A DNA stretch of 64,000 nucleotides from a virus (taxonomy: Duplodnaviria > Caudoviricetes). The notes under the pieces were generated by a model. That model was not told the origin of the DNA. It saw only the letters and a program-made list of their open reading frames with translations, and did not search any database. A program made the position numbers and the translations under genes. Where the stretch lies: the IMG/VR virus record IMGVR_UViG_3300005937_000010, positions 8,089 to 72,088 of that record. One strand, 5' to 3'. Shown here in pieces: positions 17,420 through 44,697 of this stretch (position 1 is its first letter; each line of letters begins with the position of its first letter).

Positions 17420-17760
17420 TCTAAGCGCTTCCGAGCCGTCGGGCGCAACTTCCCTGCATCTGAGGCCAGGTGGCCCAAAAGAGAGCACAGAAGGGCATAG
17501 GAGAGCCTCAGTGCCGCTTTGGGCTACCAAGCTGCTGATTTCCCTGCAAATCACCATTTTCAGGCAGCTTGGTACCCCTGAACCGCTTTTCTACCCAAAA
17601 ACTTGTCACTTTGAGGCGTTTCCGGGTGGCCAATCCGCCCCCGCGGCCTCCCCCCTTCGGCGTCGTCAAACTTGGCACTTTCCGATAACGGAGGCTAATG
17701 CGCTGCCTGCCAAGCTGCTTATAGGTTGCGCGCGCAAGTATCGTCTTGGCAGGCAACGTC
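17420..17760. other. Divergent non-coding region, candidate genome end/packaging site
   Basis: AT-richer gap between divergent genes, abrupt compositional break, palindrome TTGCGCGCGCAA at 17726-17737. Confidence 0.35.
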
Positions 17761-18297
17761 CGAGGCTGGCTGCCCTGCCGTCCTGCCAAGCCGCTCCGGC
17801 TGCCCTGCCTGCCTGCCACACGAGGCCGCTGCGCCCGGTGCGGTGGAGGCAGGACGGCAGGACGGAGGCTGCGCACACGGCTGCGGTGGCACCGTCCTCG
17901 TGGTGTCCTGGAGGCCACCCGTGCGGAGCGGCACTGGCTGCCTCCGTACGCTCCGGCTCGTGCCACGGATGCCACCGCTCCGGAGCGGATGCGGCGTGGC
18001 GTCCTGGAGGCAGCCGCTATCTCCAGGCAGTGCCTCCGTGGTGGAGCCTGCCAGTGCCAAGCGGAGGCCATGGACGGAGCCGCTCCGTGCCTGGCGCTCC
18101 ACCGTGTGCGGATGCCAAGCCGGAGGCCGTCCGCTCGCGCGTACGCGGAGGACGCTGCCTGCCAAGACACGAAAAGTCCGCAAATAGCGGCTTTTTTCTA
18201 AGCTCGCGGAGTGCCTGCCAAGCCGCATCCTGCCTGGAGCCGTCTACTCTGTCCGTGCGGCCACGAGGCCGCACCACCCGAACCGATTGGAGACACC

Positions 18298-21200
18298 ATG
18301 TCGCACGAGCCTTACACCACCACCACGAGCCAGCGCGTCTACGCCAGCATGACGGAGCGCCGCGAGCGGTACGCCAGCCTGGAGCGGCTGCCGTCCACGC
18401 CGGACACCACGTGGAACGTGGCGCGCTGCCAGGACACGCACTGCCACGTCCTCTACGTGTGGCCTCGCGGCCTCGCCAGCCTGGAGGACGGAGCCACGCT
18501 CCGGTGCGTCCGCTGCGGCGCTCCGCTGGCGCGGACTACCCGCGAGGCACGCGGAGCCTGGAGCCTCTACCCGCTGGAGGACTTGGCAGCCGCGTACGGC
18601 CGTGCCCTGGAGCGCCAGGACGCCGCTGCGGCCTCGGACGCGGAGTACCTCGCGGCGCTGGAGGCCAGCGGCACCACGAGCGCGGACGGACTGGCGTACG
18701 CCAGGCAACTGCGGACGGAGACTCGCGCCACGATGCGCAAGCCGCTGGAGGCCAAGCTCCGCAAGCTCCGCAAGGCAATGGCTGCGGAGGCTGCCAAGCT
18801 CGCGGAGGCCGCTGCCGTCCGCGAGGCCGTGGACGCGGAGACGGACGCGGAGTACGTGGCCATGGCCTCCACGATGCGGCTGCCGCAGCCGGAGGCCACG
18901 GAGCCGGAGCACCACACGGACGCGGAGCCTGCCACGCCAGCGCAAGCCGTTCTACTGGCTGCCCTGGAGGCTGGCACTGCCAAGCTCGTGCCGTCCACGG
19001 AGGCCGTGGAGGCTGCGAAGGCTGCCGCTGCGGAGACGGCTGCCAAGCTCCGCGCGGAGCACGAGGCCGCGAGGACGGAGCGCGTCCACGCCTCGGATGC
19101 CTACCGCGCGTCCAGGACGCCGGAGGACGATGCCAAGACACTGGAGCGCGTCCAGGCTGCGGACTACGCGCTGCGGCAGACACGCGCTGCCCTGGAGGCC
19201 GCTGGCGTCCTGCCGCAGCCGCGCGTCCACACGTACGCCAGCACGTCCGAGGCGTACAACCGCAGCCAGTGCGACGATGCCGTACAGGACGGAGACGTGC
19301 TCCGCGTGCCGTCCGAGGACGCTGCGGCCGTCATGGTGTCCGCGTGGCCAACCGCTGCCACGGAGGCCACCGCTGGCGAGGCTTTCCACGTGCTCGCGGA
19401 TGGCGAGGACTGGAGCGCGCTGCCTGCCGTCCTGGACGGAGGCCGCACGGACTACGCGGAGTCCGCTGCCGTCATGGCTGCGGAGCTTGCGGAGGACGCC
19501 ACGCTGCGGACGCTGGCTGCGGACTTGGCAGCCAAGCCGCTGGAGGCCAGCGCGCTCGTGGCTCCGGAGGACGTGCCTACGCTGGCTGCCAAGCTCGTGC
19601 CTGGCGTGCTCGTGGAGCACGTGGAGTCCGGAGCGCGTGGCACGGTGGCAGGCACGCCAGCGCCGCAGCGGAGCGCTGGCAATGCGCTCTATGTCCGCGT
19701 CCGCTGGCAGCACGAGTATGCGCGCGAGGCTGGCGCGCTCGTGGCCATCCGGAGGCTCCGCATCGTGGAGGACGGCTCCAGCACTGCCAAGCTCGTGGAG
19801 CCGCAGCCGGAGGCTCCGCAGCCGGAGGCCGTAGAGTCCGTCCGCGTCTACGCGGAGGCTGCGGAGCGCCGCGAGGCACGCGCGGCCGTCTACGGCACGG
19901 AGGCCACGGAGGACGTGCTGCCGCTCGCGCATGCCATGGCTGCGGCGTGGAGCCATGCTGGAGGCCAGCCGGAGGACATGCCATCGGACGCCGGAGCCGT
20001 GCTCCGCGCGCTGGACGCGCGCATGCTGGAGACGGCTGGACGGCTGCGGTACGCGCGCATGGCCACCGCTCGCGGAAACTTGGCAGCGTCCATGGACGCG
20101 CTGGAGGCCGCTCTAGCCTCCGCTCGCGCGTCCGAGGCTGGCAGCCTGGACGAGTCCTCGGAGGCCGTCACGGAGCCGCACACGGCCTCGGAGGCCATGC
20201 CAGCGCCAGGCTTGTCCGGACTTGGCTGGACGGAGCTTGCGGACGGAGACGAGGACGCGGAGCGCTGCCGTGGCTGCGGCTGCCGCGCGGACTGGCACGA
20301 TGCCATGGACGGAGCGTGTCCGGAGGACACGGAGGCTCCGCATCCGTACAGCATGGCAGCGGATGCCCTGGAGGACGAGGACACGCCGGAGGCCGTGGAG
20401 ACTGCCAAGCTCCACGCGCTGGCAGCCGCAGCCGTGGAGGCCACGGACTGGAGCATGTCCGCGCTGGAGGACGTGTCCGCGCTCGTGCTGGACTACCGCG
20501 AGGCCACCGCTGCCGCGTACGGAGCGGATGCGCGCGAGGCTGCCAAGCGGACGCGCGAGGCCATCCGGCACGCGCTGGCAGACATGGACGGAGCCACGTA
20601 CGCGCTCGTGCCGGACGCCACGCTGCGGCTGGCTGGCATGCCCTACGTGGAGCGCCAGTGCTCCGGCACGGAGGACGGCTGGCTGTACTACGTGCTCCAG
20701 GACGCGGAGCGCGTGGAGGACGCCGGAGGCTGGACGGACGCGGAGCCTGCCTGGCTGGAGGCTGCGGACTTGGCACGGCTGGCCATGCTGGACGATGCGG
20801 AGCGCCACGCGGTGGACGCGCTGCGCAGTGCCATGCAAGGCAGCGCGGAGGACGCATACGGCCTCGCCATCCTCGTGCTGGAGCCGTCCGGCTGGCACGT
20901 CCTGGAGTACCGCGAGGCCACGGCCTCGGACGGCTGGACGCCGGAGCGGATGCGCACGAGCGCACTCGTGGAATACGCGGAGCACGCTGCCAAGCTCGTG
21001 GACGTGGACGGCCTCGTGTGGACGCTGGCAGGCTCCGAGGACGTGCCAGCGCGCTCCGCTGCCCTGGCCACCGTGGACGCGCTGGAGGCCACCGCTGCCA
21101 AGCTCGCGGACTGCGAGGCCGTGTGCCAGCGGCTCCGCGTGGAGCTTGCGGACATGGCCAGCCGGACGCTGCCGGACTTCCGGAGCGCGGACGGCTCCGC

Positions 21201-21444
21201 GCTCGTGTGCCTGCCTGGCGCAGTGCTGCCGGACGGCCGTGGCTCCGTGGTGGTGGCTGCCAGCGCGTCCAGCGCGCACGTATGGCACGTCCTGGCCATG
21301 CGTCCAGGCTGGCACGCTGCGGACACGTACTACGTGGCCACGTACGCGCGGCCGTCCTCGTGTGACACGCCGCAGCGCACGGCTTGGCATGACACGCTCG
21401 CGGCTGCGCTGGCAGACTACGCCAGCCGGACGGAGGCCGTCTAA
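18298..21444 (+). CDS. Large multidomain early protein (1048 aa), polyvalent-protein-like
   Basis: ATG at 18298 after CCCGAAC...GGAG; globular motifs (STSEAYNRSQCDDAVQDGDVL; WHVLAMRPG...YYVATY) joined by Ala/Glu linkers. Confidence 0.75.
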   Translation: MSHEPYTTTTSQRVYASMTERRERYASLERLPSTPDTTWNVARCQDTHCHVLYVWPRGLASLEDGATLRCVRCGAPLARTTREARGAWSLYPLEDLAAAYGRALERQDAAAASDAEYLAALEASGTTSADGLAYARQLRTETRATMRKPLEAKLRKLRKAMAAEAAKLAEAAAVREAVDAETDAEYVAMASTMRLPQPEATEPEHHTDAEPATPAQAVLLAALEAGTAKLVPSTEAVEAAKAAAAETAAKLRAEHEAARTERVHASDAYRASRTPEDDAKTLERVQAADYALRQTRAALEAAGVLPQPRVHTYASTSEAYNRSQCDDAVQDGDVLRVPSEDAAAVMVSAWPTAATEATAGEAFHVLADGEDWSALPAVLDGGRTDYAESAAVMAAELAEDATLRTLAADLAAKPLEASALVAPEDVPTLAAKLVPGVLVEHVESGARGTVAGTPAPQRSAGNALYVRVRWQHEYAREAGALVAIRRLRIVEDGSSTAKLVEPQPEAPQPEAVESVRVYAEAAERREARAAVYGTEATEDVLPLAHAMAAAWSHAGGQPEDMPSDAGAVLRALDARMLETAGRLRYARMATARGNLAASMDALEAALASARASEAGSLDESSEAVTEPHTASEAMPAPGLSGLGWTELADGDEDAERCRGCGCRADWHDAMDGACPEDTEAPHPYSMAADALEDEDTPEAVETAKLHALAAAAVEATDWSMSALEDVSALVLDYREATAAAYGADAREAAKRTREAIRHALADMDGATYALVPDATLRLAGMPYVERQCSGTEDGWLYYVLQDAERVEDAGGWTDAEPAWLEAADLARLAMLDDAERHAVDALRSAMQGSAEDAYGLAILVLEPSGWHVLEYREATASDGWTPERMRTSALVEYAEHAAKLVDVDGLVWTLAGSEDVPARSAALATVDALEATAAKLADCEAVCQRLRVELADMASRTLPDFRSADGSALVCLPGAVLPDGRGSVVVAASASSAHVWHVLAMRPGWHAADTYYVATYARPSSCDTPQRTAWHDTLAAALADYASRTEAV

Positions 21445-26939: not shown

Positions 26940-26968
26940 ACGGTACAGATAGTCCTATCGGATGTCAA
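26940..26968 (-). promoter_or_regulatory. Sigma-70-type promoter of DUF932 operon
   Basis: TTGACA-17-TACCGT; spacer holds the inverted repeat GATAG-GA-CTATC. Confidence 0.7.
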
Positions 26969-27037: not shown

Positions 27038-27232
27038 CTACTCGGTGACTACCTCGTATGTCTTGCGGTCGTCTCCGTCCGGTAGAGCCTGGAGCGCCTT
27101 GGCAGGTACCTCGCGCACGTAGCCGAAGGCATCCCTGACTTCCGCCTTCCGCCCGGTGCGCGAGAGCACGGTGACAAGCTCGCCGTCCAGCATGGCACGC
27201 TCGCGCTTAGCCTTTTCCATGCTTGCCTCCAT
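27038..27232 (-). CDS. Small SH3/KOW-like hypothetical protein
   Basis: GELVTVLSRTGRKAEVRDAFG beta pattern. Confidence 0.5.
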   Translation of the reverse strand: MEASMEKAKRERAMLDGELVTVLSRTGRKAEVRDAFGYVREVPAKALQALPDGDDRKTYEVVTE

Positions 27233-27446
27233 TACCGTTACGGTGCTGGCTGGCGTTCCGCGTGGCCGCGTACGGCCACTCGTCCATGGAGCGCACTGTC
27301 ACGTCCACGGAGTCGTGGCCATCGGGTGGCATGAAACCGATCCGGCGCAGTCCGGCGCGGAGCCAGAGAATGAATCCGAGAAACTCCACGGCAATCCATG
27401 CCAAGATGGCGAAGAATGCGAAGCTGCCGAAGATGGCCTCACGCAT
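27207..27446 (-). CDS. Membrane protein
   Basis: MREAIFGSFAFFAILAWIAVEFLGFILWL. Confidence 0.5.
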   Translation of the reverse strand: MREAIFGSFAFFAILAWIAVEFLGFILWLRAGLRRIGFMPPDGHDSVDVTVRSMDEWPYAATRNASQHRNGNGGKHGKG

Positions 27447-27612
27447 TCTCGTACTCCGCGTAGCGCCAGCGTGGAGCCTCCACGACGATGCACATGAAAC
27501 AGTAGTCTCCGGCCTCCGGATGCCTGGCGGCTGGCGTGCCACGGCGCATCTTGCCACAGCCGTCGCACTGCCAAGCCACAGACGAATGACGGCCACGATG
27601 TCCGGCGTCCAT
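27439..27612 (-). CDS. Small Zn-finger protein
   Basis: CDGC and CFMC pairs. Confidence 0.5.
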   Translation of the reverse strand: MDAGHRGRHSSVAWQCDGCGKMRRGTPAARHPEAGDYCFMCIVVEAPRWRYAEYENA

Positions 27613-27657
27613 GTTGCACGCCTCACCGCAGCGCATCGGTTCGCCACAGACGCCAGA

Positions 27658-27679
27658 GGGCGCGGCCGGAGCCGCGCCC
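27658..27679 (-). terminator. Hairpin after histone-like gene
   Basis: GGGCGCGGC-CGGA-GCCGCGCCC. Confidence 0.55.
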
Positions 27680-27701
27680 TCGTGCTGGCCTGGAGCCATC
27701 T

Positions 27702-28643
27702 CTAGCGCCGTGCCTTGGCAGCGGCCTTGCCCTTACCCTTGACCGCTGTCGCCCGCGTCCGCGTGGCCGGAGCCTTGCGCGAGGCCGCAGGCTTGCCCTT
27801 CGGAGCCGCTGTGCGGGCCTGTGCGGGCTTGCGAGTCGCAGGGGCAGCCTTGCCCCTGGCCGGAGCGGGCTTGGCCGCAGCGGGCTTCACAGCGCGCCGC
27901 GTACGCGTCGTCTTCGGCCGGACGGCCGCGCGAGCCTCGCGCCTGCGGATGTCGTTCGGCTTGGTGCTCGTGCCGTACGCTGCCCGCTCGCCCGACTCGT
28001 GCTGGCCGGTGGCCTTCACGAAGTCCAGGGCCACGCGCCCGATGAGCCAGATGACCATGCGGTCGGCCGCGTGCTTGTCCTTGTCCGGGTACCAGCGCGT
28101 GGCGTGCCGCTTGACCTCCGCGAAGACCTTGGCCTTGTCACCCCGGTGCTTGCGCAGGCTGTCCATGACGATTCCGCGCTTGCTCGCGGAGCCGCCTTTC
28201 CAGTCCGCCGTCCAGTCGATGGCGCTGTTGTCGATGCGCACCGCGTAGCCTTCCGCCGCCTGGCCGCGCGTGCTCGTGCGCTTGGCAGCCGGAGCCGCCT
28301 TCGGAGCCGCCTTGCGCGCGACCGGCTTCGTCGTGGTGGCCTTGCCCTTGCCCTTCGCGGGCGCGACCGTGCGCGTGGTGGGCTTGGCAGCGGGCTTCGC
28401 CGGAACGGCCTTGCCCTTCGCCGGAGCGGCGGGCTTGCCCTTGACGACGGTCGTGGCTGCCGCCTTGCCCTTCGCTCCGTTGCGCCCGTTGGCGCTCGTG
28501 GCAGTCTTGCCCTTCGCGGGCTTGCTCGTGCGCGTCTGTGCCTGCTCCACGAGCTTGCGCAGCGTGGCGGGCGGGATCTTGCGGTAGTCCTCGATTCCCG
28601 CCTGCTTGGCCTTGGCCCACAGCGTAATCATGTCCTTGTCCAT
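27702..28643 (-). CDS. Histone-H1-like basic DNA-binding protein
   Basis: AKP/KGK-rich arms flank a ~100-aa globular core; short helical N-terminal domain; GGAGG RBS. Confidence 0.75.
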   Translation of the reverse strand: MDKDMITLWAKAKQAGIEDYRKIPPATLRKLVEQAQTRTSKPAKGKTATSANGRNGAKGKAAATTVVKGKPAAPAKGKAVPAKPAAKPTTRTVAPAKGKGKATTTKPVARKAAPKAAPAAKRTSTRGQAAEGYAVRIDNSAIDWTADWKGGSASKRGIVMDSLRKHRGDKAKVFAEVKRHATRWYPDKDKHAADRMVIWLIGRVALDFVKATGQHESGERAAYGTSTKPNDIRRREARAAVRPKTTRTRRAVKPAAAKPAPARGKAAPATRKPAQARTAAPKGKPAASRKAPATRTRATAVKGKGKAAAKARR

Positions 28644-28680
28644 GCCTACCTCCTATGTCGTGTTTCGGGTATCGGCAACC

Positions 28681-28737
28681 AAGGTAGCAAGGCTTGGCAA
28701 GGCTTGTCAAGGTCTTGTCACGAGGACTTGCTTGGCA
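28681..28737 (-). promoter_or_regulatory. Promoter of H1-like gene overlaid by four TG(C/A)CAAG sites
   Basis: TTGACA (28705-28710)-18-TACCTT (28681-28686); motif copies at 28693, 28703, 28714, 28731. Confidence 0.65.
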
Positions 28738-29116
28738 AGTCCCGGAACGTCACCACGAGCGTGCCTTGATTGTGCGGGTGCTGGCCTGCCGGATCAAGGT
28801 ACACGAGCTTCGCGGAGACGACGGCCAACACTCCGGCGTCCAGCTTCGGCGCGAGGACTTCCGCGACCTCGCGCGGCAGGTAGCCAAGCTGCTTGCCCTC
28901 GTACAGACGGCTTGGCAGGTAGACGGCCACGGCGTTCTCATCGTACGCATTCTCCGGCTCGCGCTCCAGGCGGATCCCGGAGATGCCCTTCGCGGCAGCC
29001 GCCGCGAGGATGGCGCGATTCTCCTTCGTCCACCGGAAGCGCAAACCGATCACAGTCAGTTCGTGCTCCCACGTCTTCGGCTTGGACAGCTTGGCACTTT
29101 GGGTCTTTCCTGGCAT
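28718..29116 (-). CDS. HIRAN-domain protein
   Basis: VIGLRF, LEREPENAYDENAVAV, LGYLPR motifs. Confidence 0.85.
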   Translation of the reverse strand: MPGKTQSAKLSKPKTWEHELTVIGLRFRWTKENRAILAAAAAKGISGIRLEREPENAYDENAVAVYLPSRLYEGKQLGYLPREVAEVLAPKLDAGVLAVVSAKLVYLDPAGQHPHNQGTLVVTFRDLPSKSS

Positions 29117-29142
29117 GGCAAACCTCCTCAAATATGCCCGCG

Positions 29143-29457
29143 TCAGCGCGGCCCTGGGCGCGCGTTGCGGAACCATTCCTTGACTTGCTTGACTTCCTCC
29201 GGCGAGTAGAGCCGCACACGCAGCTTCCCGATCTTGACTCGGATCGGACTGGGGAAGACGATTTCGCCGCGCTTGGCACGCTGCTCTGCACGCCGGACAC
29301 GGGACGGATCCCGCTTGACGACACGGCATAGCTCCGCGAGCGTCAGGTAGTTCTCAAAGCCCTCCGGCTTCCACCTGGACGAGTCATCCTTTCCGCCCCA
29401 CACTGGCACAGGCTCCCCCTCTCTTTGTTTTGTTTTTGCTTTTGTTGCCAAGCTCAT
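29143..29457 (-). CDS. MerR/excisionase-like HTH protein
   Basis: YLTLAELCRVV...RLYSPEEV. Confidence 0.6.
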   Translation of the reverse strand: MSLATKAKTKQREGEPVPVWGGKDDSSRWKPEGFENYLTLAELCRVVKRDPSRVRRAEQRAKRGEIVFPSPIRVKIGKLRVRLYSPEEVKQVKEWFRNARPGPR

Positions 29458-36798: not shown

Positions 36799-36828
36799 AT
36801 GGTAGCAAACCCACCATGGGTGTGTCAA
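36799..36828 (-). promoter_or_regulatory. Sigma-70-type promoter
   Basis: TTGACA-18-TACCAT. Confidence 0.7.
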
Positions 36829-44103: not shown

Positions 44104-44223
44104 CTACTTCTCCTCGTCGCCGTTGTCGTCGTCCGGCTCCGGCTCTGTCGGCTCCGGCTCCGGCTCTGGCGCTGTTGGTGTCGGTGTCTCTGCCACGTTC
44201 CCTCCTTTCGACTTGGTAGGCAT
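44104..44223 (-). CDS. Tiny acidic Pro/Glu-rich peptide
   Basis: EPEPEPTEPEPDDD; fills the HU-DnaE gap. Confidence 0.35.
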   Translation of the reverse strand: MPTKSKGGNVAETPTPTAPEPEPEPTEPEPDDDNGDEEK

Positions 44224-44627
44224 CAGGCTGCGGCCTTTCGCTTGGCCCTCGGCTTACCCGCCAACTGCTCGTGAAGCTCCTGCCCGACGTTGGTGCGCAG
44301 GCTCGGGAACTTGGCACTGAGCGACGGCGACTTCTTGATCTTGACCATGAACTTGTCAGGCTCATCGGCCCGGAGCGTCTTGGGTGGCTCATCGGGCTTG
44401 AAGGGGTTGCGGATCTGCGTACCCTTCTTCCGTCCCGCCTTGACCACCGGCTCAAAGGAACACAGGCCGGTGAGATTGACCTTGTACCCCTGGATGATGC
44501 AGTCCGTCACTTCGTCCTTCAACGCCGTGAGGAACTTTCTGATCTGCGACTCTGGCGTGCCAGGGAGCCGCAAACCAATCTCGTGGATCAGATCCCCTTC
44601 GTTCAGTGAGATTGGCCCCTTAGCCAT
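44223..44627 (-). CDS. HU/IHF-like DNA-binding protein
   Basis: KVNLTGLCSFE...RKKGTQIRNPF...VKIK. Confidence 0.8.
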   Translation of the reverse strand: MAKGPISLNEGDLIHEIGLRLPGTPESQIRKFLTALKDEVTDCIIQGYKVNLTGLCSFEPVVKAGRKKGTQIRNPFKPDEPPKTLRADEPDKFMVKIKKSPSLSAKFPSLRTNVGQELHEQLAGKPRAKRKAAA

Positions 44628-44656
44628 CTTGTCACTCTCGCTTCGTTTCGGGATGA

Positions 44657-44697
44657 TTCCGGGGCGGTAACGAGCGCCAACTCCCACCGCCCCGGAA
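44657..44697 (-). terminator. 12-bp stem-loop between SSB and HU genes
   Basis: TTCCGGGGCGGT...ACCGCCCCGGAA. Confidence 0.5.

Follow-up and report, generated by a model that had tools for sequence, protein, structure and literature searches.

A very basic protein of an uncultured soil phage as candidate reader of an evenly spaced genomic heptamer that is arrayed at its own promoter

The stretch of DNA analysed here (the window; 64,000 nucleotides) comprises bases 8089-72088 of the single 72,088-bp contig IMGVR_UViG_3300005937_000010, an uncultured soil phage from a rhizosphere metagenome with phage genes along its whole length. The heptamer TG(C/A)CAAG, written TGMCAAG below, recurs through this genome far more often than expected and with an even spacing that disregards strand; and its only operator-like array lies over the promoter of a gene for a very basic protein of 313 amino acids, P0001. 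We propose, with a probability of roughly 40%, that P0001 is the autoregulating reader of the heptamer and that the array over the -35 box and spacer is its operator. DNA binding, sequence specificity, repression and titration are properties that we infer for this protein, as is a role in the compaction or shielding of phage DNA.

TGMCAAG is present in 408 copies in the window compared with 15.9 +/- 3.7 expected from dinucleotide shuffles (26-fold), and in 462 copies in the genome (TGCCAAG 347, TGACAAG 115) compared with about 18 expected. A preliminary description of this DNA had counted around 300 sites; the genome-wide enrichment that it reported is upheld, although its number was too low. 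TGCCAAG alone is the commonest 7-mer of the genome at ~35-fold above expectation, and the one-letter variants counted are mostly 10- to 100-fold rarer, the exceptions being TGACAAG, TACCAAG and TGGCAAG. Most copies lie inside genes, in several frames and on both strands, where they are fitted by rare codons (NNT-GCC-AAG, NNC-TTG-GCA and CTT-GGC-A) in a genome whose GC content at third codon positions (GC3) is near 0.8. The recourse to rare codons in several frames and on both strands indicates that the word is selected as DNA. Two other functions considered for the word were rejected: that of a -35 decoy, as the base before the word is mostly C and not T; and that of a sigma-54 -24 element, as the GG is not kept in the variants. 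The literature on the word and on over-represented phage heptamers yielded nothing relevant. A local excess of the palindrome CTTGCCAAG, which contains the word, was seen outside the window in an open reading frame (ORF) of 872 amino acids (genome 5662-8280, minus strand; L094), with five palindromes within 2.3 kb.

The copies recur about every 156 bp on average and are spaced far more regularly than under the null model. With both strands pooled, the coefficient of variation (CV) of the spacing is 0.65 versus 1.00 +/- 0.045 in the null (z = -7.6); the largest gap is 599 bp versus 1045 bp; and 27 spacings of 40 bp or less are found where 106 are expected. Close pairs occur at 0.08, 0.41 and 0.62 of expectation for distances of 0-20, 20-40 and 40-60 bp respectively, and this avoidance of close copies extends to non-coding stretches. 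Evenness is lost when each strand is taken by itself: the two CVs are then 0.89 and 0.92, compared with 0.82 +/- 0.05 for the observed positions with shuffled strand labels, and neighbours on opposite strands avoid one another to the same degree as neighbours on the same strand. By orientation, 222 copies are on the plus strand and 240 on the minus strand of the genome; within called genes, 197 are sense and 170 antisense. Since the evenness is strand-blind, it points to a reader of duplex DNA rather than an enzyme moving along one strand. The spacing would suit either a DNA-binding protein of considerable footprint or a mark on the duplex, for which a second site within ~50 bp brings little gain; and its indifference to strand favours the general idea of the preliminary description, a protein that binds the word throughout the genome, over directional rivals.

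At the promoter of the basic-protein gene, four copies of the word stand at exactly the positions given in the preliminary description (Table 1), and its account of their arrangement was also accurate: the three gene-proximal copies, with spacings of 10 and 11 bp, are one helical turn apart and lie on one helix face, and two copies fall over the -35 box or spacer, one overlapping TTGACA and one within the 18-nucleotide spacer. The fourth copy follows at a spacing of 17 bp, and the array extends from 21 bp upstream of the -35 hexamer into the spacer. Three of the four copies are full palindromes (CTTGNCAAG) versus 31 of the 462 copies genome-wide. This promoter is the sole cluster in the genome of at least three copies within 45 bp, where ~11 such clusters are expected under random placement; it holds the genome maximum of copies per 100 bp, a count reached by 0.09% of 100-bp intervals; and three of the five spacings of 18 bp or less in the whole genome are found here consecutively (P = 1.5e-4, observed spacings shuffled). 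The other sigma-70-like promoters in the window (49568, 36828, 26968 and 14774) have no copy of the heptamer. In being unique, on one helix face and placed over the -35 box and spacer, the array is like an operator.

The promoter was not called by a consensus promoter scanner, its -10 box matching TATAAT at three of six positions. It is predicted because TTGACA-N17/18-TAnnnT is conserved before the homologous gene in most relatives and because similar promoters are found elsewhere in the window, those at 36828 and 26968 also having TACCnT as -10 box. The leader element CCCGAAAC likewise follows the promoters at 36828 and 26968, and is found upstream of the homologs in the related contigs L006, L008 and L012. 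A common form, (a)ac(c)-TTGAC(A/T)-N16-18-TA(C/G)nnT, can be written for the minus-strand promoters at 26968, 28710, 36828 and 49568; in the first three cases a CCCGAA(A)C element lies between promoter and ribosome-binding site, immediately ahead of the latter.

Table 1. Features of the basic-protein gene, its promoter and two further genes; positions are those of the window
Feature	Position	Strand	Details
P0001 gene, 313-amino-acid basic protein	27702-28643	minus	from ORF list and translation; stop codon TAG at 27702-27704
N-terminal helix-extended-helix-like pair, residues 1-40	28524-28643	minus	from AlphaFold2 (AF2) model and family conservation
First basic arm, residues 41-133	28245-28523	minus	A 28, K 19, T 13, P 11, G 11%; net charge +22; KGK repeats
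All-helical core, residues 134-245	27909-28244	minus	from alignments A1 and A2 and models
Second basic arm, residues 246-313	27705-27908	minus	A 34, R 16, K 16, P 12, T 10%; net charge +22
Ribosome-binding site GGAGG	28649-28653	minus	5 nucleotides before ATG; GGAGG also precedes the homologs' starts
Leader element CCCGAAAC	28662-28669	minus	common to other non-structural genes of the phage
Putative sigma-70-type promoter	28681-28710	minus	-35 TTGACA at 28705-28710, 18-nucleotide spacer, -10 TACCTT at 28681-28686
Heptamer copy 1, TGCCAAG	28693-28699	minus	in promoter spacer; part of palindrome CTTGCCAAG
Heptamer copy 2, TGACAAG	28703-28709	minus	overlaps -35 box; part of palindrome CTTGACAAG
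Heptamer copy 3, TGACAAG	28714-28720	minus	one helical turn upstream of copy 2; provides the TGA stop codon of the HIRAN gene
Heptamer copy 4, TGCCAAG	28731-28737	minus	inside 3' end of HIRAN gene, last codons; part of palindrome CTTGCCAAG
HIRAN-domain gene, upstream neighbour	28718-29329	minus	Pfam PF08797, E = 3.7e-13
HU/IHF-type gene	44223-44687	minus	PF00216, E = 5e-6; just upstream of the DnaE polymerase gene

P0001 has a pI of 11.6 and a net charge of +58, and the GC3 of its gene (0.89) is the top value among called genes. The layout of basic arms around a core, as proposed in the preliminary description, is confirmed in outline, with a helical pair added at the N-terminus. In the AF2 model this pair is made up of helices 3-15 and 25-39 (predicted local distance difference test score, pLDDT, 87-93), and a motif, L-x-A-x-A-K-x-L-G-I-x-x-Y-R-x-M-x-x-x-E-L, is kept here across the family. 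The first arm has a pLDDT below 50 and no secondary structure, and homologs differ in its length while keeping its composition; the second arm is also predicted to be disordered. In two AF2 models the core is formed by helices 155-165, 170-184, 190-212 and 229-241 with pLDDT above 90, without strands and without a beta wing; its invariant residues are D138, W144, G151, R156, G168, W199, R203, V204, D207, H215 and R220.

One search returned 21 homologs, over which the family plan is fixed (N-terminal motif, A/K/T/P/G arm, core and second basic arm); a core-profile search returned 193 clusters at 50% identity, nearly all of 230-370 amino acids with the core at the same place, and distant members retain the N-terminal motif and both arms. 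A tblastn search of 50,697 deposited phage records with the core, and one pattern scan of GTDB genome contigs, found no homolog. On these comparisons P0001 belongs to a previously unnamed family of very basic phage proteins, restricted to a single clade of uncultured phages. Its charge and layout suggest a protein that is abundant and binds duplex DNA, and the conservation of a globular core in 193 clusters implies more than electrostatic binding.

Database searches did not relate the protein to any known fold. A Pfam scan with E up to 1 gave a sub-threshold match to Geminivirus C4 only, and none to PF00538, Rho_N or PF00216 (Bac_DNA_binding, HU/IHF), a domain that is carried by a separate gene (Table 1); no family was matched in a PHROG scan with E up to 0.1; and a sequence profile search of the PDB gave only a low-complexity near-miss and no histone. 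Structure searches of the PDB (Foldseek and VIA-align wide), BFVD and ESM Atlas, made with the complete model and with the core by itself, found nothing above background and no match with E <=0.001. The best match was the NAB2 N-terminal domain (Z 5.8, background level), and winged helix-turn-helix and helix-turn-helix chains (E2F-DP, LysR and sigma domain 4) were matched at background level only, with Z of 3.7-5.3. The N-terminal pair gave a weak match to the Rho N-terminal domain 1a62_A (Z 4.7, root-mean-square deviation 3.5, 42 residues aligned), and Rho_N-like viral proteins head the non-significant BFVD list.

In the circuit that we propose, host RNA polymerase would transcribe the P0001 gene from its sigma-70-type promoter, and the array of three to four sites would serve as operator for the reader of the 462 genomic copies, whatever protein that is. 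P0001 would be the simplest candidate, and the design logic favours the product of the regulated gene as the binder. Free P0001 would repress its own promoter; on replication of the genome, new sites would soak up the protein and the repression would be lifted, with the 462 sites acting as a sink; and such titration would keep P0001 in step with phage DNA. This is supported by the two disordered arms, the high charge, the highest GC3 and the presence of the array only before this gene.

The preliminary description had suggested looking for co-occurrence of homologs and word enrichment across phages, and this was found throughout: all 12 distinct homolog-bearing contigs have an enriched heptamer of the form TG-N-N-A-W-N (z 12-51), in lineage-specific words, and no homolog was found without it. 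The word is TGCCAAG in this genome, L005 and L006; TGCCAAG and TGACAAG equally in L010 and L001; TGAAAAG/T in L002; TGAAAAC in L015; TGAAATT plus TGACAAT in L003; TGACAAT and TGACATT in L008; TGAAATC and TGGAATT in L012; TGAAATT/C and TGTAATT in L016; and TGTAATT and TGAAATT in L017. Within this skeleton T1 and A5 are invariant and G2 nearly so, and they parallel an invariant protein surface (W199, R203, D207 and TGQH). As judged from these variants, the word is one that evolves within the clade. Spacing is under-dispersed in most relatives, the pooled CV being 0.66-0.70 in five of eleven. At 74 loci with a distantly related helicase and without the core, the strongest heptamer was never of the TG-N-N-A-W-N form. 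Parts of the promoter array are also seen in relatives: with the same offsets as here, L005 has TACCAAG-11-TGACAAG-11-TGCCATG and L006 has TGACAAG-11-TGACAAG; the palindrome CTTGACAAG at the -35 box is common to both; and the offset of copy 3, one turn upstream of -35, is occupied in L006 (TGACAAG), L005 (TACCAAG), L008 (TGACATT) and L002 (TGACAAG).

Several observations weigh against P0001 as the reader. The fold searches, with background matches only, revealed no recognisable sequence-specific DNA-binding fold. The homolog-bearing contigs all belong to one clade, with the same gene order and dozens of common genes, so that the co-occurrence in 12 of 12 contigs fits every other clade-specific gene equally and does not single out this one; among the others are the HU-like gene at 44223-44687 and many genes without assigned function. 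At the promoter, copy 28703 is largely accounted for by the -35 hexamer itself. Among 11 relatives, the 100-bp promoter region contains 2, 2, 1, 2, 2, 1, 3, 0, 0, 0 and 0 exact copies of the relative's own word, with an empirical p of 0.06-1.0, and is never the densest spot of the locus; in L003, L008 and L012 the densest word clusters are found 7-8 kb downstream, in another intergenic region. Full promoter tiling is on this comparison a feature of the present lineage, its older part amounting to a two-site core at most.

The densest clusters in these three relatives (L003:17258-17413, L008:17186-17260 and L012:18301-18393) contain 4-6 copies within 100 bp. That of L008 is a gap between divergent genes, and the equivalent region here, window 17602-17784, has five copies in 183 bp; this divergent region could be an origin or early control region.

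Some of the same observations would also be accounted for if P0001 were a non-specific DNA-coating or condensing protein, or a nucleic-acid chaperone, and another phage or host factor read the heptamer and controlled the operon via the array, an alternative that we consider rather unlikely though the strongest of those weighed here. Its arms are of low complexity (A/K/P/T), like those of non-specific binders, and its core is without a recognisable specific DNA-binding fold; against mere coating, this globular core is well conserved across the 193 clusters, although its most conserved residues are constant between lineages that have different words. The promoter tiling is not conserved in relatives; the word's sole operator-like array in the genome does, however, sit before this gene. 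The phage has further candidate DNA-binding genes, among them the HU-like gene at 44223-44687, whose product may be another DNA-architectural protein and is a possible reader; but among the ~50 phage proteins put through domain scans, no better-supported reader than P0001 was found.

It seems improbable to us that the heptamer is instead a target of DNA modification, or a one-strand enzyme signal such as a primase start or Chi-like site, unrelated to P0001. The phage does encode its own DnaE-type polymerase, DnaB-like helicase, Toprim primase and RecA, and all variants, read as reverse complements, end in GCA, TCA or ACA, which we take to resemble known primase trinucleotide sites. Readers of one strand, however, predict evenness on each strand, and the observed per-strand CV is no better than with random labels while the pooled spacing is strongly even; the strand-blind spacing weakens the one-strand part of this explanation accordingly. 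No methyltransferase or other modification enzyme was seen among the ~50 proteins scanned, in a phage with many genes to which no function is assigned, and neither modification nor a one-strand signal explains a helically phased array over one promoter.

Less probable again is a cluster without regulatory role, produced by slippage duplication of a 10-bp unit CTTGMCAAGC around the word-like -35 box CTTGACAAG in one of the rare stretches without coding constraint: ~2.8 tandem units can be aligned (CTTGACAAGC CTTGCCAAGC CTTGCTAC), the -35 copy is common to relatives for promoter reasons and the array is specific to this lineage, but the genome avoids copies closer than about 40-60 bp, in non-coding DNA included, so that decay would be the expected fate of a neutral cluster; two of the four copies fall on the 3' end and stop codon of the HIRAN gene, and hence are under constraint; and a second copy is retained one turn before the -35 box in L005, L006, L008 and L002.

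If P0001 does read the word, a wider and distinctly more doubtful proposal can be made, which we think unlikely as a whole: that the clade runs its own sequence-directed chromatin. In it, a private heptamer placed about every 156 bp, never closer than ~50 bp and in either orientation, would be read by a family with a helix-extended-helix (HeH), arm, core and arm layout; protein and word would drift together (TGCCAAG, TGACAAT, TGAAAAG, TGAAATC and TGTAATT); the level of the protein would be set by titration at the operator array; and phage DNA coated in this way would be labelled as self, which might for instance serve to shield or compact it. Phage proteins that organise the genome, and repressors with many genomic sites, are already known; we know of none that is paired with a word every 150 bp through coding sequence, with strand-blind even spacing and changing between lineages. 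If P0001 reads the word, it would give a virus a compact means, addressed by sequence, of labelling or packaging its DNA, and would open up an entire clade of uncultured soil phages to study. Were P0001 non-specific, the new family and the strand-blind, evenly spaced word would still need explaining.

The globular domain of linker histones H1 and H5, which act on nucleosomal linker DNA, is a winged helix, with three helices plus a beta-hairpin wing. P0001 is similar to these proteins (PF00538) in having a folded centre between disordered basic regions rich in A/K/P and a very high net charge; the long disordered Lys/Ala/Pro-rich tail that is a feature of H1 has its counterpart in the two arms, each with a net charge of +22 and pLDDT below 50. 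The centre of P0001, in contrast, is predicted to be all-helical without a beta-hairpin wing, and there is an extra N-terminal helix pair. No H1 or H5 structure is among the Foldseek and VIA-align matches listed for P0001, although such lists are not in themselves enough to dismiss a family. The H1-like label given to this protein in the preliminary description cannot stand as a statement of kinship, given the lack of a PF00538 match, a predicted wing or any significant structural match; it is cosmetic, describing composition and layout rather than homology or fold, and by sequence P0001 is not a member of the linker-histone family.

The first 40 residues of P0001 are reminiscent of Rho N-terminal, SAP and HeH motifs, with two predicted helices, a G-I-x-x-Y-R linker and the weak Rho match; they differ in that Pfam Rho_N is not matched and the structural score is at background. 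Nucleic-acid binding by HeH motifs usually shows no preference for sequence. Bacterial H1-like basic-repeat proteins (Pseudomonas AlgP and PhaF, Chlamydia Hc1 and the tail of mycobacterial HupB) have Lys/Ala/Pro repeats and bind nucleic acid electrostatically (PMC12818456). An AlgP cluster appears among the weak ESM Atlas matches to P0001. The likeness is of composition only: the core and N-terminal motif of P0001 were not found in those proteins, and the P0001 family is confined to one phage clade.

Closest in concept are protein p6 of phi29 and the Cluster A repressor, P0001 being unrelated to either. The p6 protein is small and recognises DNA shape, not a defined word, in repeats of ~24 bp. 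In this Bacillus phage it is proposed to coat the whole genome, and it also represses an early promoter (PMC10899789). P0001 has no sequence relationship to p6, with no PHROG match, and the present genome has a defined heptamer about every 156 bp. The stoperators of L5 reportedly number a few dozen, are ~13 bp long and mostly lie between genes, oriented with transcription. The immunity repressor of Cluster A mycobacteriophages (L5 gp71) binds an asymmetric short site at a promoter together with many genomic stoperators, in lineage-specific variants (PMC9283540, PMC6550527). The combination of 462 copies of an asymmetric site with a four-copy promoter array is alike; the sites here are, however, of 7 bp, mostly in genes, in both orientations and evenly spaced without regard to strand, the sense and antisense counts given above showing no orientation with transcription, and a helix-turn-helix repressor fold was not recognised in P0001. 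The present case thus differs from both p6 and the stoperators in how many sites there are, in their placement inside genes, in their indifference to strand and regular spacing, and in a word that drifts from lineage to lineage.

In every contig with readable gene order the HIRAN gene is found directly before the homolog, with a gap of 80-160 bp; these include L005, L006, L008, L010 and L012 and the contigs of P0140 and P0160, two of the weakest listed matches. Gene order in the clade is RecA ... SNF2 helicase ... HIRAN followed by the basic-protein gene, and DUF932 is downstream of the latter in the nearest relatives. A Cys-rich ORF of 86 amino acids (27439-27699), directly downstream of the P0001 gene, was considered as a sequence-specific partner and rejected, as it is not conserved. 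This ORF overlaps the stop codon of the basic-protein gene. Relatives have in its place a small membrane protein ending in WPYAATRNA, which here is encoded in another frame (ORF 27207-27647, minus strand, within 27207-27699), and the 86-amino-acid ORF may be spurious.

The stretch was present in two sequencing runs, both of them rhizosphere metagenomes, with no RNA run listed. No cultured phage is close, the terminase sharing under 25% identity with its counterpart in any cultured phage. In addition to the replication and recombination genes named above, the domain scans identified packaging and head genes (a gpA-type terminase and a capsid protein); tail genes (baseplate J, a Mu gp48-like protein and a tape-measure protein); and genes for DNA processing or binding (RuvC-like and Cas4-like nucleases, the HU-like protein, an SNF2/ResIII helicase, the HIRAN protein and DUF932). 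Neither lysogeny genes nor a histone-fold protein turned up among the ~50 proteins scanned. Nearly every gene of the phage is carried on the minus strand. The sole long plus-strand gene, at window 18211-21444, encodes 1077 amino acids in a stretch of 72% GC, and its product has only a sub-threshold match to HEPN_AbiV; at this position relatives have a gene of 466-1030 amino acids on the opposite strand, in one case with a weak match to the RNA polymerase alpha C-terminal domain.

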